A DNA stretch of 64,000 nt. It comes from Tubulanus polymorphus (taxonomy: Eukaryota > Animalia > Nemertea). The stretch is taken from positions 10,767,859 through 10,831,858 of the forward strand of contig NC_134036.1 of assembly GCF_964204645.1 (NCBI RefSeq). The letters run 5' to 3'. Made by a program: the position numbers and the translations under genes. Each line of letters opens with the position of its first letter. The first letter of the stretch is position 1. Below, one piece after another: positions 29,791 through 62,379 of the stretch. The notes below the pieces were generated by a model. The model searched no databases and had not been told where the DNA came from. It saw only the letters and a list, made by a program, of their open reading frames with translations.

Positions 29791-32782
29791 GCGTTTAGGC
29801 GATTATTTCGCTGCGTTTAGGCAATAAATTTAGTTCAGCGTTCTCACTATAAGAATAGCCGTTTGCCGTCGTATGTGTCTAACACCCTAAATTTAACAAT
29901 CTAATTTCTACATGAATCACCTACATTCGGCTGTTAGTGCTACTTCAGACCAGTAGAAAACTTCGTAATCAACAGTAACGGTTTCAAGAAAATTATTGTG
30001 TAAACTTGGGATGATTCGTATCCGTGGATGATTGTTAAATTATTGATTGTATACACTATAATCTAGAGTACCATAAAACTCAATGGAATATCGTTTTTCA
30101 ATCTTCCGTACACAGATTATCCTTATATGAAAATAAAAAGTACTTCAATGTACTACTTCAAATTATACTGTATATTTATTAAGTAGTATAAAAATAGTGG
30201 ATCAGCAGGCCACCTGAGACCAATCTACGACCTAAGGTCAGTTGCCTAAAGTTGTTTGGAATTCACCAGTGGATTGTTGATATTTGTAATTGCAATTAAA
30301 ACTTCATTGCTAAAATAACTTTTTATTTGTAGTATAGTCGCACTCAAATGTAGATAATTGACAAAACAATTAAACCCGCTGCGTATAAATTTAGAAAGAT
30401 GACCTCTAGTGTGAGATCGAACGTCGTGTCGTAATTTTCAAATGATAAGTCATGGTTCGAAATTTGAAATGTGCGCGTAGTGGGTCTTATTTATATTAAA
30501 CGTGTATTTGGTCATGTATCATATTGTTTAATGCTTAATCATTCATGTAATACAGGATGCAATATTTCACTGAAAACAGTGGAAATAGCTAGAAAAGGTA
30601 ACAATGTGCTTGCTTATGTACTAATAATAAGTGCATTGGTAAACGCAAAGCACACAGACATTGGTTGCTTAGGTTTTTCGAAGGGGAGACTTTTTGGGAA
30701 AATTAATGGTCAATCAGAATATTAATGGTCAATCATTATCGAGATATCTAAAGGGAAGCTTCTTCGGGGATCTTAAATGTTGGACTTGTACACAAGGAAT
30801 CTTTTTTTTTTATTTGTAGTCCAATGTATAAATCCGTTATTACCTCTGGCGTGTAGATACAATACAAAAACATGAAACGAAATTCTTAATATTGACTTTC
30901 CTAAATTTACATGAGTGTATGTTTAATCAGCATCAAAATTAAGCATTGGTACTCTAGATTAGATATTGTAAGCAGAATAAATTAAAAATAGTGAAACTAT
31001 TGGATTGAATTCAAATCATGAACGAAGACTGAGGTTTTACAGACAATTAGATCGAAAATAAGTGATAGATAATGAAAGTTGAAAGAATCTTCTCCACTTG
31101 CTATAATAAGCTTTTATTCACAGATGTATATTCGCTCTGGCTGTTCTCTTTCCAGTCTCGTTGTTTCTTTGCTACTTTTAATGTTTCCCGGTGTCTCATT
31201 TTAAATCATTTTACTCTTTAAAAGAAGGCTGGAGGAATGTTGTATCGTGTGTCGAAATCAGACGCCGGTATTGGGGATTATTAGGTCTTGCTTGCACGCG
31301 CGTTGCAGGTGGATATAAAGACCACCCGCTTACGGCAGAGTGGGTACGTGTATCTTGGCATAACCGTGTTCAACAATTTGTATTTTTGATTCGGACCAGA
31401 TTATCTGGACAATGTACGCCACGTATTTGCCGCGGGATGTTGAATTTCTCTGCACACCGGACACGCGATCGGTTTTCATGTTGAATCGTTGCGGCGTTTC
31501 TTCGTCTTCTGGTCGTGAACGATTGTCATTATTTCGTCCGATATTTGAACAGAAAAACGAACAACGAATACAGATAACCAGTGGAGATTATCATTCAAGA
31601 ATGGAATTATAAGTTCGTGGAATCAGTTGAAAAGCTAACTTGAAAGCAGTCCAGGTCTGACCGAGGCAACAATAATGTAACTACATAATATTTGCAGTAA
31701 TTGCTGATCCGAACTCAAACGGTTGATTTACGCAGTGTTTGGTTGTTATTGACCGCATCTTATGATCATGGCTAACATCAATTTGTTCGTGTAGTAACGA
31801 CGGGTATAGTTTATCCTTTGAATCGGTTCCACTTATTTAACAAAACTTTGTTTGAAATAAGTTACATTATATATTGGAACAGTTTAGGTCACTTTTTTAA
31901 GTATTAGAATATTATACGGTATGTGATATCCCGTACTGCAAGAGAGGTCTCAGTAACTTGGATAACACGTGCCCTTGGTAACTGGTTCTTTCGTTGGTGT
32001 TCAAACACCGGCCCATCGCCAATTGAAGAAATTGAAATTACCCGTTGAGGCCACAGGTAGCAACATTGTAGCAAGATATATATGCAGTATCAGTGAGAAT
32101 ATATTTCTTAACTACTGGAACATTTGTTGTATATGTTAAGTCGTTGACGCAGATGTTGTGATTTGTTTTCGGAGTGTAACACGGTCCCGTATTTGTTTCA
32201 ACTGACGAATAGCCGTTGGATATTTCAAACAGATAGCTATGTGCACAAATCACTAAGATAAGCACAGAAATCTCGTTTAGCATATTATCTTATATCTTAT
32301 CCCACTAAAAAATTAAAATCCCTTTGATATTCTCAGAAATGTATGCTTATTTGAATGTGAAAAAAGTCCGACCCAGTGTTTTATGGTAATACCAAGCGAG
32401 TAGCGCACTGAAATAATTTCTCCATAATGTAAAATATTGTACCAATTGGTGTTACTATTTTTGTAGCATTTATTGTAAATCTATGTATTATTCATATTTT
32501 TGATTCATGAGATTTTATAATAACAAATTTTATAAAATATTAATTTGACGCGATTTGATTAATTTTTCTGAGGATTGGTATAACTAAAAATAAATAACCT
32601 ATAATCGTTCCCCAAAGAACCCGGTCTAGAACCATCTGATGATATTGAAAAGGTTTCTTACGTAAATATTTTAAAGGAAATGGTTCCTCAAAGAACCTTT
32701 ACCGGGGATTCTTTCAAAGCACCCCACAAAATAGGTTTTTTGAGGTACATACCCTAAAGGGTGGAACCCTTCGTTCTAAGAG

Positions 32783-32854
32783 AGTAATTGGAATATGTGG
32801 GTTTCATACCAGAGGGCGAGAGGGCGAGACACCACTCATCACCACAAGTAATTT
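32783..32854 (+). repeat. Left TIR
   Basis: Exact reverse complement of 49462-49533. Confidence 0.95.
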
Positions 32855-32867
32855 GTTTTCCTTATAA

Positions 32868-33131
32868 ATGGGAGACAGTGAGTTCCAAACAGAAAAAAGT
32901 GATGTTAATGAAAATCAATATTATTGTCCATATTGTAAAAAATACATCGATAAACCTTACATGGAAAATGTTAGAAATTATATTGATTCACTAGAAATAA
33001 AAGATACAATTGAAATTTCAGAAATATGCCGTAGTAAAATTGTGACACACATAAACAGTGAGAACTGTATCTGGATAAATAGATGCTTGTTATATACAAG
33101 GGGAAGTAATCCCACTCATCACCACAAGTAA
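32868..33131 (+). pseudogene. Internally deleted duplicate of the pPolB N-terminus
   Basis: NQYYCPYCKKYID is fused to KPYMENVRNYIDSLEIKDTIEI; both blocks occur about 100 aa apart in ORF 47334-49418. Confidence 0.85.
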
Positions 33132-33147
33132 TTTGTTTTCCTTATAA

Positions 33148-33474
33148 ATGGGAGATAGAAAAGCATTCTTAGCAACAATAAATAACAGAATAAAACCAGC
33201 AAAAAAACAATTTGAAATAAAAAAGTTAGTTGATGTTACAAAAGAAATTGAACATAAAATATTGAAATTAGAAAAGATAAAAACTAAATATGGAGAGAAA
33301 GTATCAGCTAATTTAAGCTACTGTAATGTTAGTACATCACGAGAATTTAAAGTGTTTTTACCCGATAAATGGGTTTCATTGAGTACTGAGGAATTGAAAG
33401 ATTTAGTAGGATTTAAAATAATCTATCATGGGAAAAATGAAGATGGCCATCTTGATTTAGAAATTATTGATTAA
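33148..33474 (+). CDS. Small conserved Polinton protein, possibly OB-fold ssDNA-binding
   Basis: KKL..KTKYG..VFLPDKW..IYHGK pattern; homologue in the second element at about 62000-62340. Confidence 0.55.
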   Translation: MGDRKAFLATINNRIKPAKKQFEIKKLVDVTKEIEHKILKLEKIKTKYGEKVSANLSYCNVSTSREFKVFLPDKWVSLSTEELKDLVGFKIIYHGKNEDGHLDLEIID

Positions 33475-33668
33475 ATTAAAAAAAAATAAATTAATAAAAA
33501 TAATGAATATCTAGAATCCGAAATGACTTATCTGAACAATTTAATTGCTCCGCATAGATGGTGCCATAAACGGCACCCACACAGTGATAGACAAAAGTAG
33601 TGAGATGGTGCCGTACGGCACCCACACGGTGATATTCAATTATTTTTTTTTGCTTTTTTTCTAAAATA

Positions 33669-34037
33669 TTAATCCTTTTTTTTTATTATCAATTTTGGAA
33701 TTTCAGAAGTATTTTCATTTTTGATAGCAGTTGTTTCAGAATTACTAATATCATGAATTTTATTTGATTTCTTATACCAATTACACCCAATCAAAATGAA
33801 TACAATTACAAATCCAACTGTAAAATATAAATATTTATCAAATATTCTGTTATCAGAAGGAGTAGAAATAACAATATTTTCACCATTTTTATTAACATTT
33901 TTATTACTTATTTTTTCTTTTACAGCTTTTTTATATTCTTGTGATTTAATTCCTAATTGTCGAGACCATTCAATTTGTTTCTGAGTTCTCGGTTTTTTCT
34001 TCACAGTTAATTCCTTCACTTCTTTCACCTCGCTCAT
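33669..34037 (-). CDS. Small basic protein with one transmembrane segment
   Basis: 122-aa ORF, TAAATG start, hydrophobic YLYFTVGFVIVFILIG. Confidence 0.65.
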   Translation of the reverse strand: MSEVKEVKELTVKKKPRTQKQIEWSRQLGIKSQEYKKAVKEKISNKNVNKNGENIVISTPSDNRIFDKYLYFTVGFVIVFILIGCNWYKKSNKIHDISNSETTAIKNENTSEIPKLIIKKKD

Positions 34038-34575
34038 TTATTATAGAAATATTTTTACTTTCAATATTTGAAAATGTTATAACCCCAGTTGATAATAATG
34101 TCATAAATCCACCTAATTGAAATGATAAATATCCAATACATTTATTTAATTCAGTCATAACTAAATAATCATTTTTTAAATCGGAATATAATTTATTTTC
34201 ATTTTCAATTGGTAGTATATAATTACATAATTTACTTTAACCTTTTACTACATTTTCTGATATCGCGTCATTAATTCTAGCTGTTCTCGCGGCTTCATAA
34301 ATTTTAAATAATCTAATAATTTCATCTGATTTCATTGTATCTAATTCATTATAAGTTAAATTTTTACCGACAAAATTTTTACATTTTCCAGATGCTATTA
34401 ATATTTCTAATTGATGTTTACAATAAAGATAATATTCATAATTATTATTTGTTGTAACATTATTTAAAGCACCATCATCTGGAGTTAATTTTGTTTCTGT
34501 TATTCCTAAATCATCTAAAGTTTTTTCAATTGGAACATCACCATTTTTAGATTTTATTTTCTTTTCACCTACCAT
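33970..34575 (-). pseudogene. Polinton-like hypothetical gene interrupted by an in-frame TAA at 34237-34239
   Basis: ORFs 34237-34575 and 33970-34158 share a frame and read through VVKG*SKLCNYILPIENE. Confidence 0.65.
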
Positions 34576-34607
34576 TTATATAACAAAAAAATTAGTTGTG
34601 ATGTTGC

Positions 34608-34845
34608 AACTAGAATTTAACTAGAATTTAACTAGAATTCAACTAGATTAACAAGCTAGTTGAAATATTGTTGTTTTTATTTATTTATTGTTAAATCTAG
34701 TTGATTTTTGTTTCAACTACTAACAACTAGAATTCAACTAGAATTAAAATAGATTAACAAGCTAGTTAAAATATTGTTAAATCTATTTGATTTTTGTTAC
34801 AACTACCAATAACTAGAATTCAATTAGATTAACAAGCTAATTGAA
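34608..34845. repeat. Internal non-coding array of AACTAGA / CTAGTT motifs in both orientations
   Basis: About three larger units of AACTAGAATTCAACTAGATTAACAAGCTAGTT. Confidence 0.8.
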
Positions 34846-34846
34846 T

Positions 34847-35455
34847 TTAAATAAATTCATATTTAAATGGGTGTTGTAATCTAAATAGTAATTTTGATCT
34901 TTTAATATTTTTCAACTCATCCATATATTCATTATGTAAATCATGTGGAATAATATCATTTTCCTCAAGTGCATTTTTCATCGATTTTCTATCTTTATTG
35001 TAGAATAAAACTAGAAATCTAATGTTTTCTCTAAAGTCTTTAACAATTGAATTATATTTCTGATTTAAAACCCAAGTTGTTATCCCAAAATGTCTACCAG
35101 AGAAAGCTAAATAACATAACTCACTTTCTCTAATTTTAGAATCATGTAAATTTGCACAATCATCTATGATAAATAATGTATTTGATCCTTTATAAATATC
35201 AATTGCTATTTTTATACAATTATCTAAATTTTCTTTTACTGTTTTAGGATCTAATATAATAAATTTATTATTTCTAGTAATATTTCTATCATAAGTTTGA
35301 TTAAATTCATATGTTGGACAAAATAATACTATATTATCAAAATAGTTTTTGTAAATAGTTTCTAATAAATTTAATATAAAATAAGTTTTTCCACAATTTG
35401 TTACACCAGAAATTAACATATTATGAGGCTCAAATATAAATAATTCCTTATTCAT
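34847..35455 (-). CDS. Genome-packaging ATPase (A32/FtsK-like)
   Basis: Walker A SGVTNCGKT, Walker B LFIIDD, SGRHFGIT..LNQ. Confidence 0.92.
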   Translation of the reverse strand: MNKELFIFEPHNMLISGVTNCGKTYFILNLLETIYKNYFDNIVLFCPTYEFNQTYDRNITRNNKFIILDPKTVKENLDNCIKIAIDIYKGSNTLFIIDDCANLHDSKIRESELCYLAFSGRHFGITTWVLNQKYNSIVKDFRENIRFLVLFYNKDRKSMKNALEENDIIPHDLHNEYMDELKNIKRSKLLFRLQHPFKYEFI

Positions 35456-36583
35456 TTATATATTTTTAATTTTACTTGATAATATCCATTCATTGAATTT
35501 ATCTGGCCATCCAACCCATTTTACTAAAGAATATTTTTTTCTTTTAATAGTTTTTGTTTTTAATACTTTTTCAATTTTATATTCTTGTTCTAGATTTTCA
35601 GTAGTTAAACTTAATTCTTCTTCGTAAAAGTAACCATCAACTTCTTCACCATCTAAATCTTCTAATTTATAGACATATGGTTTTGTTGTTATTACCTTTT
35701 TTATTTTATATATTTCTCTAGTAAAATTTCGATCGTATCCTTTATCAAATATCTTTTTATACTTAGAAATTCTAACATTTTGACCAACTTTAAATTTAGG
35801 TTCACCAAAATCATCTACAAGAAATGCTCCATATAAATTATTCCAAACAATTTCAGCATTTTCAGGTTTTCTAGCATCAATAGGTTTCATTCCAATAGAA
35901 GAATGATAAGAATTATTATATCCTTCTATCAATTTTGGTAAAACATCAATCCATTTAAAAGTATTATTTGCTGTAAAATATTTCCACATTCTTGTTCTTA
36001 ATGTTCTATTAAATCGTTCAACAACTGCTGCTTTTTTATCTGATTTTGTTGAAAAATATTTAATATTATGATTATCTAAGAGTTCATGAACAAGTGAATT
36101 ATCAAATTCTTTTCCATCATCAAATTGTATTTTTTCTGGTTTTAGTTTATCATCCGAAAGAAATTTTCTTAAAACATTTGATGTTTGTACAGCATCTTTT
36201 CTATAAAGTGGGAAGCTCCATACATAACGACTAAAAATATCAATTATATTCAATAACCACCAATAATCATCATTATCTTTCTTAACATTTTTCATATCAA
36301 TTAAATCTCCTTGCCACTGTTGATCTACATAACTTACCATAGTTTTACGAGTTTTATATTTTCTAACAATTTTTTTATGTGTTGTATATGTTGGTTGTTC
36401 TAACATAAATTCATTTATATCTTTATATTTAACTAAATTTTGTGGGATTATCTTATCTAATTTATCTTGTTTTACTTTACGCCATATATTTTTAGTAGAA
36501 GAATAAGCAACCGAACTCTCAGGGTTGTAATATAAATTTCTTAAATATTGTTCTTTAGTATTAGGAGTTTTTTTACCACTCAT
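35456..36583 (-). CDS. Retroviral-like (rve) integrase with C-terminal chromodomain
   Basis: QWQGDLIDM, IDIFSRY, QFDDGKEF, VVERFNRTL; YKIEKVL...LVKWVGWPDKFNEWI. Confidence 0.96.
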   Translation of the reverse strand: MSGKKTPNTKEQYLRNLYYNPESSVAYSSTKNIWRKVKQDKLDKIIPQNLVKYKDINEFMLEQPTYTTHKKIVRKYKTRKTMVSYVDQQWQGDLIDMKNVKKDNDDYWWLLNIIDIFSRYVWSFPLYRKDAVQTSNVLRKFLSDDKLKPEKIQFDDGKEFDNSLVHELLDNHNIKYFSTKSDKKAAVVERFNRTLRTRMWKYFTANNTFKWIDVLPKLIEGYNNSYHSSIGMKPIDARKPENAEIVWNNLYGAFLVDDFGEPKFKVGQNVRISKYKKIFDKGYDRNFTREIYKIKKVITTKPYVYKLEDLDGEEVDGYFYEEELSLTTENLEQEYKIEKVLKTKTIKRKKYSLVKWVGWPDKFNEWILSSKIKNI

Positions 36584-36613
36584 TTATATATCCTTAATTT
36601 TAACTTTATATTT

Positions 36614-37861
36614 CTAATATTGAATACTATTTAATTGTGAATTTACAATATTTAATTGCGCGTCAGATATAATATAAATCTGCATTTTAAAATTTTTGAT
36701 TCCTTTATTCTTTTTCATGAATAATTGTATTCCATCTTTAGTGTTTTGTAGTTTTTTTCCAGAACCATGTAATGAATTATCTTCAGTTGTTCTAAAATCT
36801 AACCATAATGCATATTTATTACCGGTATAATAATCAATTTGATTAATATTACAATTTTCAAATGATTTTACTTTTTCATTCATAAAATGTTTTCTAATTT
36901 CTGGCCATTGATCAATCATTCTCATTCCTTGACAAAATATTTTATTCGCTATTCCTTCGATAGTTATTTCTACTTTTGTTATTTCAGGATTATAATAATT
37001 ATCAACATTTATTGCACCATTAGAATATGTTGCAATAGTAAAAAATATTAATATACCTTTAATAGATCTTCTTGGGAAGTTAATATTCTCATTAATAATT
37101 TCATCATTTGCATTAATAGTTACAGTTTTAAATTTATCAATATAATCATATAATAATGAAAATCCTTGATTGTATTGAGTTTGAATTGTGCTAGCAATAT
37201 TTTCATTAGTTACTGTGTTATATTCTAAACATATATTCGATAATTTATAACCCATATCTTTAACAACGCTAGATAATACAATTTCATTTACAGGAGCAAA
37301 TGTTATCTCAAATATAATATCTTCTTGAATTGCGTATTTATATAAAGGTGCATTATTATTTATCAATTCAAAGTCTAATGGAATTTTATATTTGCTTCCA
37401 TATATACTTTTAATCAAATTATCTACACCATTATTTACTACTGCGTTATTGGCTTCAGATCTTAATTTATTTTGGTTTTCTGATTGAATACCCTGAAATA
37501 TCATATTATTTCTATTTTCTTTAGTTAACCATAAATCTTTATAATGTGAAAATAAATTATAATCATCTAATGAGAAAACTGTTTCTGGACCAATCTTTAT
37601 TGTTAACTTTTTAATCAAATATCTTCCAACATTATCAACAACATAATTATTATTATTACCGATTACTTTTATATCAGCTGATAAATAAATACTATTTGGA
37701 ACATAAAAAGTATTTTGTGTTAATCGAGGAATCCTCACGTATAAAGTTTCATCGGGATTAATATTTGAAGGGTTATGAGTAATTATATGATGTGATCTTT
37801 CTGCTTTAATAGCATTAGATATTCTATGATTCTTCGAAGGACTTATATAACTCCCACTCAT
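36614..37861 (-). CDS. Major capsid protein (double jelly-roll, adintovirus-type)
   Basis: 415 aa, beta-rich; THNPSNINP, NICLEY, RSIKGIL, YALWLDFRT..D..LHGSG and YIISDAQLNI motifs typical of this capsid family. Confidence 0.85.
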   Translation of the reverse strand: MSGSYISPSKNHRISNAIKAERSHHIITHNPSNINPDETLYVRIPRLTQNTFYVPNSIYLSADIKVIGNNNNYVVDNVGRYLIKKLTIKIGPETVFSLDDYNLFSHYKDLWLTKENRNNMIFQGIQSENQNKLRSEANNAVVNNGVDNLIKSIYGSKYKIPLDFELINNNAPLYKYAIQEDIIFEITFAPVNEIVLSSVVKDMGYKLSNICLEYNTVTNENIASTIQTQYNQGFSLLYDYIDKFKTVTINANDEIINENINFPRRSIKGILIFFTIATYSNGAINVDNYYNPEITKVEITIEGIANKIFCQGMRMIDQWPEIRKHFMNEKVKSFENCNINQIDYYTGNKYALWLDFRTTEDNSLHGSGKKLQNTKDGIQLFMKKNKGIKNFKMQIYIISDAQLNIVNSQLNSIQY

Positions 37862-37905
37862 TTATTTAACAAAAAAATTAATTATTTATTTTTTGATATC
37901 ATGGT

Positions 37906-39348
37906 TTACTTGATATTTTTTGATATCATGTTTACTAAACCAAAAATAATAGCACTTACAACTGTAATTAAAAATAAAATAATATGTTCAGCAGCAAAGT
38001 TAAGAATGTTTCCTGCAGATTTCAATATAAAACCAACAATTGATGCAATAACTCCTGGTAATGCTGCAGCAGATTTCTTTGACAGTTCCCATAAATATTT
38101 TGCTAATTTCATTAAACCATCCTTAACTTTATCTTGTATAGAATTATTGCCTGGAGGTTTATCTGGTTTATTGGGAGTGGGAGTAGGAGTAGATTTCAAA
38201 GCATTTGATATTGCTAAACCAATTGTTGTAAATAACATAGTTACAGCTGTTAGAATTGAAAGAATTGTTATTCCTTCTAATTTAAATAATAACTTCATCC
38301 TGTCTTTTAATGATATTTCAGAATTTGGTTTAATCAACAAATCTTTAAAAATAATATTTAATCTATTAATATTATAATCATTTGATTTTAATAATAATTT
38401 AATTTCTTCTTTCTGTACTTCTAAATTATCTTTTAAATTACTAATTTCTTTTTCTAAAAGTAATTCTTTTTGCCTATATTCTATTTCATCAATTACTTGA
38501 TGATCTAAATCAGACTTTAATTGTTCTATTTCTTTATTTTTATCAGTTAATTCTTTTTCCAAATACATAATTTTTTGATCTCTTATACTTTTATTATGTG
38601 CAATTTTATCAGATGCAAGTCTTATACTAATAATTTCTCTAATTGCTTTATCAGAAAATATATCTAAATCTTCTAATTCTTGATCTGTTGCATCAAATAA
38701 TCCATTCGGTAAAAGTTTTTCAATTGGAACTTTATTTGATCTAAATTTACTATTTTTGGAAGTTATATTCTGTTCAGAAGTTGTTTCTGTTTCTGATTTC
38801 TTTTTGATTATTTCAAATAATTCATTAATTCTTTGTTTAAATACATCTATATTATCATCTATTTCTTTTTGTGTAACATCAGTTATTTCATTACTATTAC
38901 TTATTATTTTAATTCTATCTGGTTTTAATTTTTCTAAAGTTGATTCTAATAATATTTTATTTTTATTATTTTTATAAGTGATATAAATATAATAATCACC
39001 TTTCAAACGATAATAACATTTACCATTATTTAAAAATTTCAATTGATCTGCTAAAAGTCCAACGTCTTCATCATTTATGTTAAAATTAGATTTTTCAATT
39101 AAATCTTCTAATTTAGGTATTTTGTTTAAATTATCTAAATCTTGTTTTACTAAATTTGGGTCTAAATTTTCAGGATTTAATTGTGATTCAGCATTTTTAA
39201 TATAATCAGGCATATTTAAATTATTATTATATTCTGGTTCATTACCATCATTAAAACTTGTTTCATCAAAATCAGGTGGTTGTTCATCAGTTATGTTAGG
39301 TTCATCAAAAGGATCCATTCCAATATCTTCTCCACCTTCTACATCCAT
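37906..39348 (-). CDS. Coiled-coil protein with C-terminal hydrophobic helices (putative membrane-active virion protein)
   Basis: Acidic N-terminus, heptad region, EGITILSILTA and KSAAALPGVIASIVGFILK segments, C-terminal TM. Confidence 0.7.
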   Translation of the reverse strand: MDVEGGEDIGMDPFDEPNITDEQPPDFDETSFNDGNEPEYNNNLNMPDYIKNAESQLNPENLDPNLVKQDLDNLNKIPKLEDLIEKSNFNINDEDVGLLADQLKFLNNGKCYYRLKGDYYIYITYKNNKNKILLESTLEKLKPDRIKIISNSNEITDVTQKEIDDNIDVFKQRINELFEIIKKKSETETTSEQNITSKNSKFRSNKVPIEKLLPNGLFDATDQELEDLDIFSDKAIREIISIRLASDKIAHNKSIRDQKIMYLEKELTDKNKEIEQLKSDLDHQVIDEIEYRQKELLLEKEISNLKDNLEVQKEEIKLLLKSNDYNINRLNIIFKDLLIKPNSEISLKDRMKLLFKLEGITILSILTAVTMLFTTIGLAISNALKSTPTPTPNKPDKPPGNNSIQDKVKDGLMKLAKYLWELSKKSAAALPGVIASIVGFILKSAGNILNFAAEHIILFLITVVSAIIFGLVNMISKNIK

Positions 39349-39364
39349 TTACATAATGAAAAAA

Positions 39365-40702
39365 TTAAAATTTAAAATATAATATTCCTCCTATAACAAT
39401 TCCTATACAAGTTATAGCTAATTTAGTATTTTCATGGGATTTATTATCATCATTTAGTTTAATTATATCATGTTGAATTTTATCGGTTTTAATATCACCG
39501 TGTGGATGCCGTACGGCACCATTTTCTATAGTATTGTAATCTTTTATTTTGGAATCATTATTTAATTTAATATTATTAGTTTTAGTTTCTGTTGATTGAA
39601 TATGTTTTTTATTTTTTTCACCTTCCATTAATTTTGGAGCAGTAATAATCTTTTTATTTATATCATTTAATCCAATTGAATTATTTATTGTTGCAGTTTT
39701 AATTAGATTATTATAACCAATTATATTTCCCATCTTTAATACTAAATCATTAGAAATAATTAATAGATTAGGTCCTATACAATAATTTAATCTAATATGT
39801 GATTTATCTAAATAATTTTGATATCTAACAATGTTTTCTGGAATCGATCTATTTTTATCATTATGAATGGAATCTTCAAATAATACTTTGAATTGTTTCT
39901 GCGCATCAAATGAAGTACTATTATTTCCAACTATTGGTGATCTTGTTTCAACTTGTGCACCTAAAATACATATCAAATAAGTTCTAATTGATTGATTTAT
40001 TCTTTGTATACCGGGTTTTGTAAATCCTTCACTATAAGATTCAATAAAATAAACCCAACCATTATTATTATGAATTTTATAATTATGATAAGCTCCAATT
40101 CTATGCATATAATCAATTCTTTTTATTTCATACTGTTCACCAACACCTTGCAATTTACCATGCGCTCTAAAATCGAAATTAATATTTATATTAAATTCAT
40201 TACATATTTTATAAAACTTGGATATATTAATATTATTATCCAATTCTTTAAAATATTTTGATCCAGGTAAAGGGCATTCTAATTCATTTAATATAATTCT
40301 AATTTGAAATTATACATGAAATCTAAATATTGTATGAATGAATTTTAAATCAGAATATTTCAAATTTTTATCTAAGTTATTCAAGTGATCATGCCAACTT
40401 ACACCACAACCAGCTGTTGCACAATGAACAGCAAAATTTAATTGATTCTGCCAATATTTCATATTAGATTTTACTTTATATATATTATATTCATCTCGAG
40501 TAAAAGTAACTTCATATGTATTAAATATATTTTCCATTTTAGAAATAAAATAGTTTGTTTCAGTAACATAAATTTCTAAATTAATCAATGAAGGTAAAAC
40601 TAAATTTTTATATATTATCATGTTACTAAAATCTATTGCTGGAGTATTATATTTATAATATTCATGTGATTTATTATATTGGAAAACTTTTGGAAACCCC
40701 AT
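39365..40702 (-). pseudogene. Conserved adintovirus-type hypothetical gene with an in-frame TAA at 40310-40312
   Basis: ORFs 40310-40702 and 39365-40243 are in frame: WQNQLNFAVHCATAGCGVS...FRFHV*FQIRIILNELECPLP. Confidence 0.75.
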
Positions 40703-40830
40703 TTATATAACTAAAAAATTAATAATTTATTAATTCTTTTAATAATTTATCTTGTTCTTCAACTGTTATATGGCCATTTAAACTTATTATATAATCTAGT
40801 GTGTTCTTTAATTTATTAATTTCTTTTATA

Positions 40831-41154
40831 TTAGATTTTATTTTTTTCTTTATTACTTTTTATATTTAATTTTGAACTTATACCAGTTAAAACACTTGAA
40901 CTTAATCCTAATACACCAATTGATATAGCTAAATGTGTTAATGGACTGAATATTGCTAGAAATGTTATTACAGAACTAATTGTAACCGAACCACTGATAA
41001 TAAGATAATATATAATTTTACTTTTTAAATATTTTTTCTTTTTTATCTTTAAGTCACTTTCAAATTCTAATATTTGTTTTTCTAAATATATTTTTAATTT
41101 AGTTTTATTTATATCATGAGGAATAATATCAATACTATCAACTTTATCTTCCAT
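40831..41154 (-). CDS. Two-TM small membrane protein, probably truncated by a frameshift in an A-run
   Basis: Two hydrophobic segments; an alternative frame continues KEINKLKNTLDYIISLNG. Confidence 0.6.
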   Translation of the reverse strand: MEDKVDSIDIIPHDINKTKLKIYLEKQILEFESDLKIKKKKYLKSKIIYYLIISGSVTISSVITFLAIFSPLTHLAISIGVLGLSSSVLTGISSKLNIKSNKEKNKI

Positions 41155-41174
41155 TTATTTAGCAAAAAAAATTA

Positions 41175-41597
41175 CTAATTAGTAAACTTATAAGCAACAA
41201 ATATAACAATAACTGTTCCACCTAAAATCCAAATTATTTCATATTTCTGTTGTTCTTTACTTGGGGTATAATAATCTGATAATTTAGGTTTGTATAGATG
41301 TAATTTTTCTTTATTTGTTACTGCGTTATATAAACTCATTGCATCATCAACTGATTGAAAATCTCTATGTGAAATCTTCTGATCATATAATTCTTTATTG
41401 ATGTAATCCATATAGTTTTGTCTCTTTTCTCTATATTCTTCTGCAGCTTTATTGTATTTCTCTAACGCTAAGTTATGTCTTCTTTGTTCTCCTAATGAAC
41501 TATTTTTATCAATATGTTTAAATAAATATCCACCACCAGTAAATGCTAAAGCGTTAACAATTGCTGATCCTATAATAGTTATAATTGCAGAAGCCAT
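41175..41597 (-). CDS. Conserved small virion-type protein
   Basis: IGSAIVNALAFTGGGYLF, EQRRHNLALE and KLSDYYTPS motifs; C-terminal TM. Confidence 0.75.
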   Translation of the reverse strand: MASAIITIIGSAIVNALAFTGGGYLFKHIDKNSSLGEQRRHNLALEKYNKAAEEYREKRQNYMDYINKELYDQKISHRDFQSVDDAMSLYNAVTNKEKLHLYKPKLSDYYTPSKEQQKYEIIWILGGTVIVIFVAYKFTN

Positions 41598-41622
41598 TTA
41601 TTTAGCAAAAAAAATTATGCAT

Positions 41623-41838
41623 TTATATGGGAGGAATATATTTTTGTTTTTCCAAATAATCAATAGTTAAATTAGATAAAGTAACTGCTAATGTTAATTT
41701 TAAAATATCATTTATATCAAATCTATCAACATTAACACTTTTGAATACTTTTTTTAATACCATTGAATAACCAACCGTTCCAACTGATAGTAATGCGCCA
41801 TTATATAATCCAGTTATTATCCACTTATTATCACTCAT
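41623..41838 (-). CDS. Small hydrophobic protein
   Basis: 71 aa, TAAATG start, tightly packed with its neighbours. Confidence 0.7.
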   Translation of the reverse strand: MSDNKWIITGLYNGALLSVGTVGYSMVLKKVFKSVNVDRFDINDILKLTLAVTLSNLTIDYLEKQKYIPPI

Positions 41839-41841
41839 TTA

Positions 41842-42195
41842 TTAATTAAAAAAATTACTATCATTAAAATATTTAGTTAACTTAGTGACTATTAATTCAA
41901 CATTTATTTTATTACTAGTTTCATTTGTATATATTTCAATTATTATTTTTTTAATATCATCGATGATAAAATCTTCATCTAATTCATAAAATCTTAAAGA
42001 TTCTCTAATTAAATTAGTAATCTTTTCTACATTTAAAGTTTCTTTATCTATTGTTGTTTCATACTCAAATGTTGTTTCATTAGAAAATGCAATATTTTTG
42101 ATATGTGTAATTACATCATTAATGTTAAATTTCATTTCTTTCTCACGTTTAAAATCAAACCCAAAACATATACTCGGTCCAACAGTTATATTCAT
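41842..42195 (-). CDS. Hypothetical protein
   Basis: 117 aa, TAAATG start, in the gene array. Confidence 0.65.
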   Translation of the reverse strand: MNITVGPSICFGFDFKREKEMKFNINDVITHIKNIAFSNETTFEYETTIDKETLNVEKITNLIRESLRFYELDEDFIIDDIKKIIIEIYTNETSNKINVELIVTKLTKYFNDSNFFN

Positions 42196-42211
42196 TTATA
42201 TAGGTGAAAAA

Positions 42212-42964
42212 TTACTCTTTACATCTTACAACTAATTCATAAATTATAGGAAAGTTATTCAAATCAATTAAGTATCCATTATGATTTCTAATTTCTAATC
42301 TAAAATTATTAAATTGAGGAATACAAGGTTTGAAATCACATTCAGCTAAATTATAATTTATTTGCGTTCCAAATTGTTTAACATTCTTCATTGGTAAAAT
42401 GTTTAGTAAACCAGAATAACAAGTTATATCTTTAGTTGCTTCGAATGTTTTTGTAGGATCGATTAAATTGCAATAAATATAAAAGTGTGTAAAAGGTATT
42501 ATATTTGGTGTAGTATCAACATTTGAATAATATTTATCTGGTGTAATTCCTAATAGTTTAGCTATAGGTTTTTTAACTGAAAATTGATATTTTTCATTAT
42601 GAGCTAACCTTATCTTCATTTTATTAGAATTATCACTTTTCAAAAATCTAATGTTAAATTCAGCATCACTACCTAATTTGATCCGAGCTTTTTTATTAAT
42701 TTCCTGCGCTAATGTATCTAAATTATATAATCCTGGTTTTAAAAATAGATAATTCCATTTATCCTTACTCTTGTTTGAAAAAAATAAATGTTCAAGACTT
42801 TTAGCTGTTATATTATAAAATGAGTTACAAAAACTTATATTAACTAATTTTAAATCTACGCAATTCTTAAATTCTCTATCTAATTGTACTAATAAATTAT
42901 GTGATTTATAATTTGTAAGTTTTCTAGAATCAATAAATATTCTGTATTCTTTCAATTCTACCAT
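42212..42964 (-). CDS. Minor capsid (penton-like) protein
   Basis: IFIDSR, LKPGLYNLDTL, FYIYCNLID, FRLEIRNHNGYLIDLNNFPIIYEL. Confidence 0.8.
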   Translation of the reverse strand: MVELKEYRIFIDSRKLTNYKSHNLLVQLDREFKNCVDLKLVNISFCNSFYNITAKSLEHLFFSNKSKDKWNYLFLKPGLYNLDTLAQEINKKARIKLGSDAEFNIRFLKSDNSNKMKIRLAHNEKYQFSVKKPIAKLLGITPDKYYSNVDTTPNIIPFTHFYIYCNLIDPTKTFEATKDITCYSGLLNILPMKNVKQFGTQINYNLAECDFKPCIPQFNNFRLEIRNHNGYLIDLNNFPIIYELVVRCKE

Positions 42965-43032
42965 TATTTATAACATAAAAAAATTACCGCTCATCACTAA
43001 AAATTAATTTTAATAAAATTTTTCCTTAATAA

Positions 43033-44346
43033 ATGGAAGTGAAGATAGCATGCGAAATTTGTGGTGAACTTCTAAGAAAAAGTAATATGGCTCGACATAT
43101 GAAAAAACATGATGAAAATTATAAACCCCCTAAAATAAACTGTCCAAATTGTAATAAAACATTCTCTAGAAATTATTTCAAAAAACATTTAGAGAAGTGT
43201 AAAAATAATAACTTAATAGTTAATGTTGACAGTAACGAAAGTAATAATAATTCTGTTGAAGTTGAACCTGAAATTATTTGGAAAAGACCTTTCTTATTCT
43301 ATGATAAGGATAATATAAAAGATCATTTCTGTGAGCCTTGTCGAATAAAATATAACCCTGAAAATATAGAAGATTGGGAGAATCATCAATTTCGTAAAGT
43401 ACATATAGATAAAATTTCTAATAAATTTGAAACTGAATTCAATGCAAGAAAAAATAATTTATTAGAAAAAATAAAATATGAGAAAACGTTACCAGATAAT
43501 GAAGAAACAGTTGAAAAGTTAGAAAAACAATATAATGAATTAACAAGAAAAACATATTATTGTAAATATTGTAAATTGATTATTACAACAAGTAATTCAA
43601 ATCTACATGATAGAACAATAAAACATAAAGAAAACGTAAGAAAATACCAAGAGCTTAATGAAGATCTATTACTAATAGATTATAAACAAAAATGCCCACA
43701 ATGTATTTATGCGACCTTAAGGCAAGAAGGTACTGTGTTATTTTGTGTTGATTGTGGATGGCAAAGGAATTTATGGGGTGAAGAAAAAACTAGAAATTTT
43801 CTTATAGAACCAAAATTAAATTATCTTGATGAAATTTTTAAAATATTTTCTATAGAAGATCATACACCAGAATATATGCAATGGCTTGAAAAAATGAAAA
43901 TAATAGAAAATAAAAATGGTGAAATAACTAAAAAAGATATTATAAAAACAATTATTCCACCAACATTTAACAAAAAACAAAAGAAAATGTATTTATATTT
44001 ATTATTTAACGATTATTATGAAAAACCTAAATTAACAGAAGAAGATATGGAAAATATAAAAAAAATATTTAAACAAATATTAATGTATCATTTGGAAAAT
44101 AGAATAACAGATTCAATAAATTATGAATTCTTTTTAAATAAGATTGTAAATTATTTAAACCTAGATATTATAATTCCATTTGATGAATTAACAAACAAAA
44201 AGAAACAAAGAGAGCGAGATGAAATGTGGAACAAGATAGAACTTTATTTAAATGAGAAAAATGGAATGGAAGAAGAACCTGAACAATTAAATGAAAATGA
44301 AGAAGCCAATAGTGATTTCGAGTTTGATGATATAGATCCATTTTAA
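43033..44346 (+). CDS. Zinc-finger protein with C-terminal VLTF3 (poxvirus A2)-like late transcription factor domain
   Basis: Four N-terminal C2H2/matrin-like fingers, a CPQC-x12-CVDCG ribbon, then SINYEFFLNKI...KKQRERDEMWNKI. Confidence 0.7.
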   Translation: MEVKIACEICGELLRKSNMARHMKKHDENYKPPKINCPNCNKTFSRNYFKKHLEKCKNNNLIVNVDSNESNNNSVEVEPEIIWKRPFLFYDKDNIKDHFCEPCRIKYNPENIEDWENHQFRKVHIDKISNKFETEFNARKNNLLEKIKYEKTLPDNEETVEKLEKQYNELTRKTYYCKYCKLIITTSNSNLHDRTIKHKENVRKYQELNEDLLLIDYKQKCPQCIYATLRQEGTVLFCVDCGWQRNLWGEEKTRNFLIEPKLNYLDEIFKIFSIEDHTPEYMQWLEKMKIIENKNGEITKKDIIKTIIPPTFNKKQKKMYLYLLFNDYYEKPKLTEEDMENIKKIFKQILMYHLENRITDSINYEFFLNKIVNYLNLDIIIPFDELTNKKKQRERDEMWNKIELYLNEKNGMEEEPEQLNENEEANSDFEFDDIDPF

Positions 44347-47300
44347 TAACCATAAGGTAATGTTTTTATACCATCATCTGAAATATGCCTTTTATCATCA
44401 AATGGATTTAAACTAGTTTTTTCAACTTCATTAATGTACATCTCATGATCTTCTGATCTTAAACAATTCATCTTGTGTTTCATTACAATTGATTTATATA
44501 AACACTTTATATAATCTTGAAATTCTATATGTTTATCAACCACATGTTTTGTTATTCCTTTTAACTTTTTAGCTTCATGATCTTTTGTTCTGTAACTATA
44601 CATTTTACTTCCTATCCCAACAAATTCAATCATTTCATCACCTCCTAATTCATCTTTAAACTTACCAGGAATCTTTTTATTATCATTACTAAACAATTCA
44701 TGATCTTTGGGGTAATTGCTAAAATCAAAATAATGTTTTAATGTTTTTAAGTCTTTTGTTATATCATTTGTCTTGATTTTTAGTATGTAGGCGTCAGTAT
44801 TGACCGCTATTAATGGAAATCCACAGTTAAATGTACCATCTTCAGTTGATAAATCATAAACATAATCTGTTGGGTTATATATTTCAAATAAATCCTTATC
44901 TTCTTCTGTTAACTCATTTTCTACATGGCTTAAATTAAAGCAATTTGGTTTAGATTTAATCAATCCAATATTCATATTGAAGCCTAATGAATTACATAAT
45001 ATATTTAATCCTGATATAGCAACTTTTCCTTTTTGAGCTAAAGATATTGTTTTGCGGTTTTTGAAACTTTTTGAACCATCTGCAGCATAGAACCGAATGA
45101 AGAACCATTTTCTTAAATTATTTTTTGCATTTAATACATAATCTGGAACTATCTTTTCTTTAGTTGAAGTATTACTTTTCACTATTGCATGAGTGTAGAA
45201 TTCGTTATTATATATATATTTATAGCAAAATCTTTAGGATTATTCACATGTATTCTATAACATTGCGATGATTTCATAACATCTATGATTTTAAATGTTT
45301 TATGTGAATAAACTTCTTCACAGAATTTCTTAATTCTTTCTAATAATTTTAAGTCTTGATTGCATAAATACCAACAATATTTAGTTCCACTAACATAATT
45401 ATACACACCTGCTGAACCATCACCCATGAAAAATCCTTTGATAAAATATTCTTTTTCTTCTAATGTTTCGGGTTCTATATTATAAATATTATTAATTATT
45501 TCATCAAATGACATATGATTCATTCTTGGGAAAAATCTTTTATGTAATAATTCATCTCCAATTTTTATATCAGTTGGTTTTATTTCATTACCATTTTGTT
45601 TAATCAAACTATGGTCTTCAGTAACATCTACAAATCCTAATTTAGTTCTAACTCTATAGATTTTCTTATTTGTTTTATGTCTAATAATATTCTTTAATTT
45701 TTTCCATCCATTTCTTGTCCAAACATCCATTAAACCATTTATTTGTATAAGTTCTTTTTCACCATATGAAATATAAGATTTATTTTGATTAGGAATTATT
45801 TGTGAAATTCTTCTTACCAATATTTTATTATTACATTTTAATAATATTGGGGTGTCAGCCGTTACAGAATCAAAATATAATATTTCTATATGTTTTTCCC
45901 CAAAAAGTGGCTGCAAAACATTGTAATAAAAATTATACATCAATAATTTTTATATTTGCAAAACAGTTGAACCTATAAATATAGGTTTATTAAATTTTAA
46001 TGATGTTCTTTTTAATTTAACTGCTGTTAAATAATCTTCAAATCTTTTATTTCCTAAATGTCTAGGACTTGATTGTAAATGTCTTAATCTTTCAGAATTA
46101 TTTACTAATTCAATATCATTTCTATTTCTAATATTTTCACATGTTTTACCATAAAAACTATTATTCATTAATTTGAAGAAATCTTTTTCAAAATCTGTTT
46201 TTGATATGGTTCTCTGTTGAGTATTGAAATCTATATATTTTTCTAACCACTTCGATTGATTAAATTCAATATATCTATGTACTTTCTTTAATTTCATTCC
46301 TTGTTTTAGATAAAATTTTAACATTCTATAATGAACAATATAATTGTATTTATTATTTTGAGTAAGTATTAATTTTTCTGTAAAAACATGATCTTTCGGT
46401 TTTATTTTCTTCTGGTATTCACTTAAATAACTATCATCTACAGTTAAATGTTCTGGGCAATAAGGTAAGTTTCTTGTTTTAAACTTTATATTTTCAGGAT
46501 ATTCTAAATCAACTACAAAGAAATAACCAATTGGTGCTTCATCTTTTAAACTAATAATTGCGCTTTCCCAATCAGTTTTATCACCATTTTCAACTTCTGT
46601 TAATATAAAATTTTTATATGGTTGAGGTTGCATCATTGCCCAACCATATAAATTATTGGCGTCAATATATAATAATTTATATTCATCATTTGCTTTAAAA
46701 TACCTATCTCCCATAACACCACTAATTCCACCTCTAATTGATTTTTCAAATAATAAAACCATATCTGCTTCTTTTAATAAATCTAATTCTACATTTGTAT
46801 ATTTTAAACCACATTGCCAGGTTAAACCAGGACTAGAATAACAATAACAAGGATCAACATTAAAATGATTCAAATTAACTTCTCTAAATTTTTCAAATAT
46901 GTCAGCTAATATCATAACATCTGATTTTAAATATAAATCAACTAATTCGCCATGATTTTTCATCTTAAAATAGTTCCAAATATTTAATGTTCTATTAAAC
47001 ACTTCGTCTTTCACATACTCCTCTTTTAATTTATCATAAAATTGATCTTTTAATAATTCTGTTACATTAAAATCATTATGTGTTTTATAAAATGAATAAG
47101 GAATTGCGCCTTTATATCTCAATAATTTAAAATCTTGTTCATTTGGATAATAATATCGAGTTATAACAAAATCATTATCAACTAAACTTTTTGATAAATT
47201 ATCTAATGAACTTGCTAGAAATCTATAAGAATCTAAAAATCTAATGCAACCAAATTGAAATGAAATATAATTTTCAGATGTTTTAGCTAATAGTTTAAAA

Positions 47301-49418
47301 TCATATTTTCTTACATTTACACCATTCATAGCATTATATTCTTCTATTTTCTTGATTAATTGCACCCAATTTTCCCGATAATTGTTTTATAAATAGATGG
47401 GTATCATAGCCTGATAAATTATGAAATAATATTGGTACGAAATTAACTTTCTTAGCTTGTAAATTGCAATCTTCATGAGCAGCTCCACGATATTTTGAAT
47501 TCAAATGATCATGATCTCTAACTCTTTTATCAAATGAATAAAAACGTTTTTCACAATAACAACAATGAGTTGCATAATTAAAATCAATTTCATCTTCTTT
47601 TGTCATAACTATTCTTTTATTTTTGTTCAATAATTTTGCAAAATCACTTTTTAATTCAATAATTTTATCACAAAAATCATTAACTACATTTTCACCTCTA
47701 AAAGAAATATATTGACTTTCATATAATTCGGGATAATTTGATTTTATGTAAATTCCATAAGCAGCAGCTCTTAGATGAACTTTTTTAATTGTATTTATAA
47801 TTGGTGGGTCTTGTATTGTGTCTTCATTTAATTCATTTCCTTTATCCATTGATTTTAATAATTGCTTTTTGTTATATATTTCTTTTCTATCTTGATCAGT
47901 TAATTCTTTATTCAACGATTCAAAATCCCCATAAATTACAAATGGAACAATATTTTTAAATTTATGATTAGTAAATTTCAATTTATAATCTTTTTCTGTT
48001 GGCATTATTAATTTACAAAAATCTTTATTATCACATAATTCTTTATGTTTTAATAATGTATTCTCGGTCATAAATTTAGATAAACATTTTCTACATAGAT
48101 AAATTTTACGATGATGATCACTTTCTGTTCTAAAGAATAAATCAATTTGTTTTAACCACACATAATGTTCATTTTCATCTTTTTTATAATATAACAAATC
48201 TATAGCATTTTCATCATCATAATATTCTGTTAAATATAAAGCTTCCAATGTATAATCTTTAATATTTTCACCTTTTGTCTTTGGTAATTGCATTAATTCG
48301 AATACATTTATTTTTAAATTATTAATTTTTTCTATTTTAGGAATCATTTTTATAGTTACTGGATATTGATCAATTTTATATAATGTTTCATATTTCCGGT
48401 AATTTGTTATTCTAAAACTATGCGTCATATCTTCTGTTTGTTGTAAACAACTAATAATTGACCATAGAAAACATTTATTATCTTCATTTTGAACATTTAT
48501 TACTGCTTTTGTTGTAAATGGTAATTTAATATAAGATGATGCTTTAATATCCTTTTCTGTTGTAAAGTTTGAATCATTTTTAAACATTTTATTACTTTTT
48601 GATGTTTTATTCCTTTTTGTATTATAAACATTTAAATCTAAATATATTATTTCATTCAATGTTAAGCCAGAACCCTCAAAATATCTTTCTTCAATATGAC
48701 GTTTAAATTCATTAAATATTTTTTCTAACTTCTCTTTTATTTGTGTTTTTGAAATTATTTCTTCAGAGTGTGTTTGAATATTATAATTCATTTTTTCTTC
48801 TGACTTTATAAAACTTACTTTCCCAGAGATACTAATTTTTGGATATTCAACATCTGTTATCAAATCTAGTATTTTTTCTATTATTTCATTAAATTTACTA
48901 TAATCTTCTATTGTTGTACCTTTAAAAAATCTAAATATAATAGCTGCAGGACCAATTTTACTATGTAATGTTTCTAAGATTTCAATTGTATCTTTTATTT
49001 CTAGTGAATCAATATAATTTCTAACATTTTCCATGTAAGGTTTATTTGAAATGGATTTAGTTTTTGAAGTTGATTCTTTTACTTTTTGAGGTTTATTATC
49101 AAAATAATCTTTTCCTAAAACATTATTACTCAAATTTTGGTGGTGTTTTTGTGATTCGAGATGTCTATTATAATTCCTTTTTACTATAAATTCATTACAA
49201 ACTTCACATTTTATTTCATCCACATTCATATTTTCTAATCGTTCTTTTCTTTCATTGGAATTTTCTGGAGTTTCAAAATCTATTACATTTTTTATATGAT
49301 TTGCAGTTTTTTCATGTCGTGTTTTATGAGATGTATCGATGTATTTTTTACAATATTGACAATAATATTGATTTTTATTGACATTATTGTTTTCTAGTTG
49401 GTGTTCATTCTCCCCCAT
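44343..49418 (-). pseudogene. polB: Protein-primed family B DNA polymerase (OTU-like and Endo VII-like domains), intein-containing, with three lesions
   Basis: DNKCFLWSII..HYVW; VIYGDFES; VRDHDH..YRGAAHEDCNL; FHNLSGYDTH; LYIDANNLYGWAM; KLMNNSFYGK; YFD|TD; KLKGI; PFDDKR. Lesions: 22-bp insertion at about 47357-47384, TAA at 45950-45952, 2-nt slip at about 45210. Confidence 0.95.
44799..45868 (-). mobile_element. Intein with LAGLIDADG homing endonuclease in PolB motif C (about 356 aa after removing a 2-nt slip)
   Basis: Block A SVTADTPILL, block B VDVTEDHSL, KGFFMGDGS and RFYAADGS, block F YVYDLSTEDGTF, terminal Asn followed by Thr. Removal restores ILYFD-TDAYIL. Confidence 0.93.
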
Positions 49419-49461
49419 TTATTAGGAAAAAAATTACTTGTGGTGATGAGTGTTAGGAAAA

Positions 49462-49533
49462 AAATTACTTGTGGTGATGAGTGGTGTCTCGCCCTCTCGC
49501 CCTCTGGTATGAAACCCACATATTCCAATTACT
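49462..49533 (-). repeat. Right TIR
   Basis: Exact reverse complement of 32783-32854. Confidence 0.95.
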
Positions 49534-61810: not shown

Positions 61811-62000
61811 TAGACTATAAGTAATAGGGAATAAGTTGTTTCAAGCCAAAGGTCGAAGGGTCGAAAAATAAATTCTCGCACACTCGAACTTATTTTTCGA
61901 CCCTTCAACCTTTAACTTGAAACAACTTATTCCCTATTACTCTTATAATTTTCATATAATAACTTCTAAAATCAATTTTAATAAAAAATATGTTATTAAA

Positions 62001-62345: not shown

Positions 62346-62379
62346 ATAAAATCAATTTTAATAAAAAATTTAGTATTAA

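Follow-up and report, generated by a model that had tools for sequence, protein, structure and literature searches.

Several parts of the background to this work are already known: VLTF3, a poxvirus late factor, has been found in animal polintons, Polinton-like viruses have been associated with poxviruses, and promoter sharing with a helper virus has been described. The first was reported for coral polintoviruses in a paper that attributes it to an earlier report (PMC11131425). For the second, Polinton-like viruses were described from entomopoxvirus occlusion bodies, with one relative integrated in a beetle chromosome (PMC11296320), and for the third the examples are mavirus, Sputnik and Gezel-14T (bioRxiv 2022.07.28.501842, PMC10945749). 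We analysed a 64,000-nt stretch of the genome of the nemertean Tubulanus polymorphus (the window; all coordinates are positions within it), which holds a 16.75-kb Polinton-like element at 32783-49533. An earlier note, made from the letters alone, had presented this element as carrying three independent poxvirus or giant-virus signatures: a start motif, a VLTF3-like gene and an intein.

Our best reading, which we consider probable though well short of certain, is that the element belongs to a family of Polinton-like proviruses that are transcribed by poxvirus-type late or intermediate machinery and are satellites of such a virus. Support for the poxvirus-type reading comes from two lines, the promoter and the VLTF3-like gene, not three.

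A bipartite motif at gene starts

Starts were selected from open reading frame (ORF) lists and by orthology, and a mechanical rule was run as a comparison. The counts include relatives from metagenomes, of which four (L001 to L004) were retrieved; L003 nearly duplicates L002 and was excluded. TAAATG is found at 15 of 16 starts in the window, 15 of 15 in L001, 7 of 7 in L002 and 5 of 6 in L004 (42 of 44 in total; 27 of 28 in the relatives). The mechanical rule gave 13 of 19 in the window, where broken gene pieces create false starts, and 14 of 15, 7 of 7 and 5 of 6 in the same relatives. The window's exception is the minor-capsid candidate, whose start reads TAATG. Our recount thus agrees with the 15 of 16 starts claimed earlier, and the motif is enriched over the expectation from upstream composition, which is 6.4%. 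TAA precedes 39 of 635 non-start ATGs and only 13 of 178 ATGs that come first after a stop in other frames, the latter figure leading us to reject ORF-calling bias as the cause. Against these backgrounds of 6-7%, 15 of 16 has a p of about 1e-16; three of the 15 motif starts are copies of one terminal sequence, and with independent starts the count is 13 of 14 (p 2e-14).

The motif extends upstream of the start codon: A at -18/-17, a T-tract from -16 to -10 that is nearly free of G and C, a short spacer, and then ATAAATG. T occupies -14, -13 and -12 in 37, 33 and 39 of the 44 starts across four loci, and the mean number of Ts between -16 and -10 is 5.5 of 7 at start TAAATGs vs 2.5 of 7 at the 39 non-start TAAATGs (p 3e-6). 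In published accounts, the vaccinia late promoter places TAAAT(G) over the start codon and has, 10 nt further upstream and surrounded by other Ts, a conserved T (PMC11980589, PMC5294985); poxvirus post-replicative transcription is described as initiating within the AAA of TAAAT (PMC5294985). Both promoter features are present here: TAAAT(G) lies over the start codon, and a T-rich core sits about 10 nt upstream, with its T peak 9-11 nt upstream, except that the ATPase starts are A-rich instead.

This difference between genes recurs across the four loci. The capsid core has 6-7 Ts of 7 in 4 of 4, whereas the ATPase core has 2-3 (ATPase starts: window 35455, L001 8470, L002 4467, L004 3892). The two core types suggest two temporal promoter classes, reminiscent of a late/intermediate split. 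The motif also precedes the polymerase and VLTF3-like genes, so that no gene has an obviously distinct "early" promoter. The sequence TTTTTNT occurs less often in the sense orientation (9 vs 88), but the sense strand is itself A-rich, and we draw no inference from it. As a control, the mechanical rule was applied to 37 loci with giant-virus-type polymerases: TAAATG precedes 22 of their 268 ORFs, and 6 of 66 in the nine of these loci with GC content of at most 0.27. In an entomopoxvirus-type locus it precedes 4 of 9 ORFs.

A VLTF3-like gene

VLTF3 is related to TFIIB. The C-terminal 212 residues of the element's candidate match PF04947 with an E-value of 3.3e-5 and 24.1 bits, just under the 25-bit cut-off; the full-length protein had no VLTF3 match in the Pfam search, and a word-indexed search with the VLTF3 region came back empty. 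An unindexed search of 1.84 billion proteins gave four matches, three of them without a VLTF3 Pfam match. Two of these three non-canonical matches, P0123 and the cluster of P0121, lie on contigs equal in size to contigs that carry capsid homologues. The sole canonical VLTF3 of the four is P0124, which has the A2L zinc ribbon (phmmer E 2.9e-5), and a profile hidden Markov model built from four non-canonical rows scores it at 58 bits (bias 23.9). P0124 in turn shares 63% identity with the VLTF3 encoded in a virus genome of 232 kb and 17% GC that also has MSV199-family genes, an NAD-dependent ligase and pol-beta, a combination that we take to be entomopoxvirus-type; the window's protein is 36% identical to that VLTF3 over 74 residues. 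By Atlas features the window's protein scores 0.88, a lead-level score, with 10 of 10 named matches being VLTF3, and its neighbours are general Nucleocytoviricota VLTF3 clusters. Searches of PDB sequences with the VLTF3 domain and with P0124 found nothing meaningful. We keep the gene as VLTF3-like on the near-threshold Pfam score, the link to P0124 and the Atlas matches.

An intein with a wide pool of relatives

The polymerase does contain an intein in motif C: it scores 32.6 bits against TIGR01445 (cut-off 24.5) and splits the motif as YFD / S...N / TDA. The starting Ser, the final Asn before Thr and the Hint N-terminal block are those of the pol-c allele; the residue preceding the terminal Asn is not His in the window's intein, nor in P0125 or P0127, and the LAGLIDADG region is weak. 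The window's copy is frameshifted, and an uninterrupted relative exists (P0125). We classed the best 120 of 326 matches by the nearest of six reference C-exteins: among these, the hosts are Delta-like in 105 cases, protein-primed in 3, T4-like in 1, topoisomerase II by Pfam in 5, and unclassified in 6. One Delta-like reference was verified, and it is 97% identical over 598 residues to a giant-virus metagenome-assembled genome (MAG); the phage reference matches RB69 gp43. A quick tree was built from the N-terminal part of 90 rows that are covered nearly in full. It unites the window's intein and the three protein-primed ones in a single clade (Shimodaira-Hasegawa-like approximate likelihood ratio test 99), nested in a clade of 45 rows (96) whose other hosts are Delta-like or the phage.

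The polymerase type of P0127 differs from that of P0125, and P0126 and P0127 place the intein allele in a 121-member polymerase cluster and in another polinton polymerase type, which implies homing between polinton lineages. A single entry from the large-virus pool, followed by movement among polinton polymerases, is the probable history of the intein. Homing-endonuclease insertions in polinton polymerases have been suggested to be intein invasions (PMC11161782). Since its pool is common to giant-virus, T4-like phage and topoisomerase hosts, the intein identifies no helper: it records past contact, as an old passenger, and is no marker of a present helper. The proposal of three independent signatures is overstated: the intein is shared across a polinton, giant-virus and phage pool, VLTF3 also occurs in coral polintons and in viruses without an RNA polymerase that are proposed to be nuclear, and the signatures are neither independent nor concordant. 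What the intein does mean is that a giant-virus-type intein circulates among elements that integrate into animal germ lines.

Capsid fold, copy number and relatives

AlphaFold predicts a double jelly-roll for the major capsid protein (MCP), with a predicted local distance difference test (pLDDT) score of 87. Foldseek matches this model to iridovirus and PBCV-1 MCPs (E 2e-16, or about 1e-16); nucleocytovirus capsids rank first, a single adintovirus entry appears at rank 21, and the mavirus MCP, at rank 49 with a template modeling (TM) score of 0.56, argues against a virophage-type capsid. A PDB sequence search with the capsid profile found nothing meaningful. There are 920 capsid homologues at E<=0.001, ranging from marine metagenomes to megabase contigs: the nearest (71-77%) come from short contigs, and contigs of 0.1-11 Mb carry a further group at 37-40%. 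No relatives were found in scans of IMG/VR with the capsid, the capsid alignment, the ATPase, P0125 and the VLTF3 alignment, or of GTDB with the capsid alignment.

The window copy is a pseudogenised provirus, with the polymerase in four pieces (two frameshifts and one stop) and three more genes broken relative to L001; with four genes broken, it is not autonomous. In raw DNA reads of the same species (12% of one run, at 90% likeness), median depth over 26 element bins is 305 (range 103-943) vs a mean of 27 in four flank bins, and the family is amplified about 11-fold (4-35-fold) in the host, assuming single-copy flanks.

The partial relatives L002-L004 (4.8-7.4 kb, incomplete contigs) keep the motif and show no VLTF3-like ORF over that length; their gene order is rearranged relative to the window element and L001. 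At L002 5568-6083, an HNH-like ORF (weak Pfam match) lies behind a TAAATG motif. L001 carries at 10340-10981 a deoxynucleoside kinase (PF01712, E 2e-31) that is missing from the window element, and its position behind the same motif supports helper dependence.

Proposed mechanism and alternative explanations

No RNA polymerase or capping enzyme was recognised among the element's genes. Because the motif abuts the ATG, its messages would have no encoded leader. Poxvirus post-replicative mRNAs receive a 5' poly(A) leader. In the mechanism that we propose, a free linear element genome would reach the helper's cytoplasmic factory, where the helper RNA polymerase would initiate in the AAA of TAAATG and slippage would add a poly(A) leader. 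The element's VLTF3-like protein might redirect or compete with the helper's late factor, its protein-primed polymerase would replicate the genome from the terminal repeats, its ATPase would package the genome into its own capsid, and its rve integrase would insert copies into the host germ line. This model starts from a free genome and does not extend to how a helper in the cytoplasm would switch on a provirus in the nucleus.

The case for dependence on poxvirus-type transcription is strengthened because the motif is bipartite, is kept in relatives and is rare in giant-virus loci, and because P0124 is entomopoxvirus-type. The earlier suggestion of transcription by a poxvirus-like or giant virus is accordingly narrowed: the bipartite motif and P0124 favour the poxvirus-type half, and the giant-virus half is disfavoured by the control loci.

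Several observations weigh against this reading. For the VLTF3-like gene, the Pfam match falls under its cut-off, the single-sequence model of the domain has a pLDDT of 44 (shallow alignment) with no Foldseek match at E<=0.001, and low-GC composition common to both proteins could favour the entomopoxvirus match (bias 23.9 of 58 bits). Mriyaviruses keep VLTF3 without an RNA polymerase and are proposed to replicate in the nucleus (PMC11253617), so that the presence of VLTF3 need not point to a helper. The controls for the motif are giant-virus-type and entomopoxvirus-type loci, with ordinary animal Polintons not among them, and the entomopoxvirus-type control comprises only 9 ORFs. The intein's hosts, among the matches listed, are mostly Delta-like and giant-virus-type, not poxvirus ones. 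A search for a helper by motif scan of IMG/VR found none: it gave 64 scattered matches, 11 of them leading ORFs of at least 60 residues and none clustered. Finally, the integrase with its chromodomain-like tail and the multiple germ-line copies indicate a nuclear phase.

The main rival, which we regard as rather unlikely, is an autonomous nuclear virus or self-synthesising transposon, whose own VLTF3-like factor would bring host RNA polymerase II to a compact private promoter and whose poxvirus likeness would reflect shared ancestry of factor and promoter. The element does encode a candidate factor, the mriyaviruses offer a proposed precedent for VLTF3 in the nucleus, and the integrase and many genomic copies fit as well. 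However, one and the same motif serves the factor gene and the polymerase, so that no promoter is left for bootstrapping; the abutment of motif and ATG at fixed spacing would make messages leaderless unless they received a poxvirus-type poly(A) leader; and L002-L004, incomplete as their contigs are, keep the motif without a VLTF3-like ORF. We judge it improbable that the helper is instead a large DNA virus of another kind, namely a nucleocytovirus or relative that has yet to be sampled and whose late promoter is of the TAAATG type. The overwhelmingly Delta-like intein relatives among the matches listed (including the one 97% identical to a giant-virus MAG), the general Nucleocytoviricota character of the Atlas neighbours and the iridovirus/phycodnavirus-type capsid fold would all suit such a virus, but the giant-virus control loci lack motif enrichment, the nearest canonical VLTF3 is entomopoxvirus-type, and the late promoters of mimiviruses, Cafeteria roenbergensis virus and African swine fever virus are described as different (PMC5294985).

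It would also be possible to explain the motif without any promoter, as a translation or RNA-processing signal (stop-start coupling, a Kozak-like context, a trans-splice acceptor or a terminator) in a compact AT-rich genome, and TAAATG does read as a stop codon followed by a start codon; between integrase and ATPase (gap 0), the TAA is indeed the stop of the upstream gene. Yet in 11 of 12 same-strand pairs the gap is 3-271 nt, so the TAA terminates no gene, the motif heads the first gene of every block too, AG occurs within 12 nt at just 2 of 16 starts, and the composition and ORF-calling controls give 6-7%. The scarcity of AG and the gap lengths led us to reject a trans-splice acceptor and stop-start coupling in particular, and we consider this class of explanation very improbable.

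If the poxvirus-type reading is true, a virus of poxvirus type should exist in this host group, although we found none. A broader extension is tentative and, in our view, doubtful: that the widespread animal-integrated lineage represented by the 920 capsid homologues consists of endogenous satellites of poxvirus-type viruses, that their promoters and stolen late factor are traces of a pox-like virus not yet sampled from this invertebrate lineage, and that intact germ-line copies would be inducible provirophages, an animal counterpart of mavirus. Antiviral defence by the element, raised in the earlier note, is unsupported. The promoter can be written as 25 bases, which brings the expression of animal Polintons, and any dependence on a helper, within reach of a simple reporter and 5'-end-mapping test, and the motif is a sequence signature by which thousands of animal Polintons could be sorted into helper-dependent and autonomous ones.

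Anatomy of the element and its neighbourhood

The terminal inverted repeats (TIRs) are 76 nt each with 99% complementarity, the termini read 5'-AGT...ACT-3', and a 6-bp target site duplication (TSD), TAAGAG, stands on each flank. With the confident double-jelly-roll model, these ends bear out the earlier description of a TSD-flanked, capsid-encoding element. Several hallmarks of Mavericks/Polintons are present: TIRs beginning AG(T) with a 6-bp TSD, a protein-primed PolB and an rve integrase (PF03175 and PF00665, both above cut-off; the polymerase is pseudogenised in this copy), and an A32-like ATPase with a double-jelly-roll major capsid. GC content is 0.21-0.27 in the element vs about 0.31-0.47 in most flanking bins. 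Coding density is 91% and no introns are evident, the L001 orthologues being uninterrupted ORFs, again as the earlier note had described. The features are as follows.

32777-32782, no strand: left TSD TAAGAG
32783-32858, plus strand: left TIR, 76 nt, begins AGT; imperfect inverted similarity extends to about 33042
32868-33131, plus strand: short inverted copy of the first part of the polymerase gene (promoter and N-terminus), probably no separate gene
33148-33474, plus strand: conserved 108-aa protein, function without assignment; 72% to L001, with a decayed counterpart in the sibling element
33669-34037, minus strand: conserved 122-aa protein with a hydrophobic segment; present in L001, L002 and L004
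33970-34575, minus strand: gene for a conserved protein of ~206 aa, in-frame stop near 34237; the L001 orthologue aligns to 34575-33988 in a single frame
34573-34852, no strand: array, between genes, of direct repeats that are short and imperfect (AACTAGAATT-like)
34847-35455, minus strand: A32-like genome-packaging ATPase (PF04665 E 1.3e-13)
35456-36583, minus strand: rve integrase (PF00665 E 2.5e-10) with a C-terminal chromodomain-like region (PF00385 E 8e-4, below cut-off)
36614-37861, minus strand: double-jelly-roll major capsid, 415 aa (fold model and Foldseek; homologues counted above)
37856-37885, minus strand: the bipartite promoter-like motif as it stands at the capsid gene; T-tract -16 to -10, 6-nt spacer, TAAATG over the start codon
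37906-39348, minus strand: 480-aa coiled-coil protein with C-terminal hydrophobic helices, no family match
39365-40702, minus strand: gene for a conserved protein of ~442 aa, in-frame stop at 40310-40312; no Pfam, PHROG or Atlas match
40722-41154, minus strand: two-helix membrane protein, weakly SLATT-like (PF18142 E 0.0013 in L001, below cut-off); stop and frameshift relative to the 144-aa L001 orthologue
41175-41597, minus strand: conserved 140-aa protein with terminal hydrophobic helices; 79% to L001
41623-41838, minus strand: conserved 71-aa hydrophobic protein; 89% to L001
41842-42195, minus strand: 117-aa ORF, conservation limited to the first 24 residues
42212-42964, minus strand: putative minor capsid (penton), 41% to L001
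43033-44346, plus strand: VLTF3-like protein, N-terminal zinc fingers, then zinc ribbon and helical VLTF3 domain (about 43690-44260)
44343-49418, minus strand: protein-primed PolB, broken (PF03175 E 1e-16)
44799-45868, minus strand: intein in polymerase motif C (pol-c site), carrying a LAGLIDADG-like endonuclease region; frameshifted
49458-49533, minus strand: right TIR
49534-49539, no strand: right TSD TAAGAG

The minor capsid candidate, for which a single jelly-roll is expected, has no significant family match and is assigned from size and context. No adenain/Ulp1 protease was found, either by Pfam among 20 ORFs or by looking in all six frames for the Q-x(4-7)-CG motif; the proteins of 442 and 480 aa have no family assignment. 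No virophage-type cysteine protease was found in the element. For the proteins of 108, 442 and 480 aa, no function emerged from PHROG, Pfam or Atlas. In the array at 34573-34852, imperfect 11-nt repeats have a higher-order spacing of 75-106 nt, and it may be an origin or regulatory site.

A second decayed Polinton-like element, the sibling, occupies about 61950-64000, starting near 61.9 kb and extending past the window edge. It contains a homologue of the 108-aa gene, then a broken protein-primed PolB (57% protein identity; 71% DNA identity over 1.5 kb) whose start reads TAAAATG. Directly at its start, at 61820-61941, is an imperfect palindrome of ~122 bp with AGTAAT...ATTACT ends, possibly a terminus of the hairpin type or else two ends lying side by side. 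Elsewhere in the window are a frame with two PC4 (PF02229) domains at 275-952, probably from a different mobile element, a 1173-aa transposase-like open frame at 6851-10372 with no Pfam match at E<=0.01, and an intronless host rhodopsin-family G-protein-coupled receptor at 59473-60423 (7tm_1, E 1e-18).

Comparison with known systems

The element resembles Mavericks/Polintons (Polintoviricetes, "adintoviruses"), as described in PMC4028283 and PMC8502044, in its TIRs, 6-bp TSD, protein-primed PolB, rve integrase, A32 ATPase, double-jelly-roll capsid and multi-copy integration in an animal germ line; VLTF3 is already reported in one subgroup, the VLTF3-bearing coral polintoviruses (PMC11131425). 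It differs from adintoviruses in having no recognised adenain/Ulp1 and in a capsid whose best fold matches are nucleocytovirus capsids rather than adintovirus hexons. The entomopoxvirus-associated Polinton-like viruses of Barth et al. 2024 (PMC11296320) are alike by description, as proposed poxvirus hyperparasites in animals, but are ~12 kb, were sequenced physically together with their helper, and carry either a tyrosine recombinase or no known integrase; the main text of that paper mentions no promoter, TAAAT, VLTF3 or intein.

Mavirus, the EMALE provirophages of Cafeteria and Gezel-14T are described with the same pairing of protein-primed PolB and rve integrase, host integration and a promoter motif shared with the helper. 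Theirs alone are protist hosts, mimivirid helpers, other motifs, and a virophage-type capsid and protease. Reactivation and host protection have been shown experimentally for mavirus-type systems, whereas the window element is known from sequence alone.

Giant-virus pol-c inteins share with the element's intein the motif C site, the Ser start, the Asn end and a LAGLIDADG-like core, and many Delta-like ones are 35-45% identical to it; here the host is a protein-primed polymerase, and the closest relatives (49-65%) are in three polinton-type polymerases of two types. In the literature searched, mostly open-access main texts, we found no description of a Polinton with a TAAATG promoter or of a splicing motif-C LAGLIDADG intein in a polinton polymerase; maps in supplements could show either. 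Further literature that we drew on in part is bioRxiv 2026.06.19.733378, 2026.10.13.758929 and 2024.03.23.586382, and PMC12220804.

With vaccinia and mpox late promoters and A2L (VLTF3), the element has in common TAAATG over the start, a T-rich core about 10 nt upstream, and a zinc ribbon joined to a VLTF3-like domain. Unlike those viruses, it uses the motif for nearly all genes, including polymerase and integrase, its factor has an N-terminal zinc-finger region additional to A2L, and it has no recognised RNA polymerase or capping genes. What is new here is the T-tract about 10 nt upstream of TAAATG, which gives the promoter its vaccinia-late shape, and the rarity of TAAATG in giant-virus loci.

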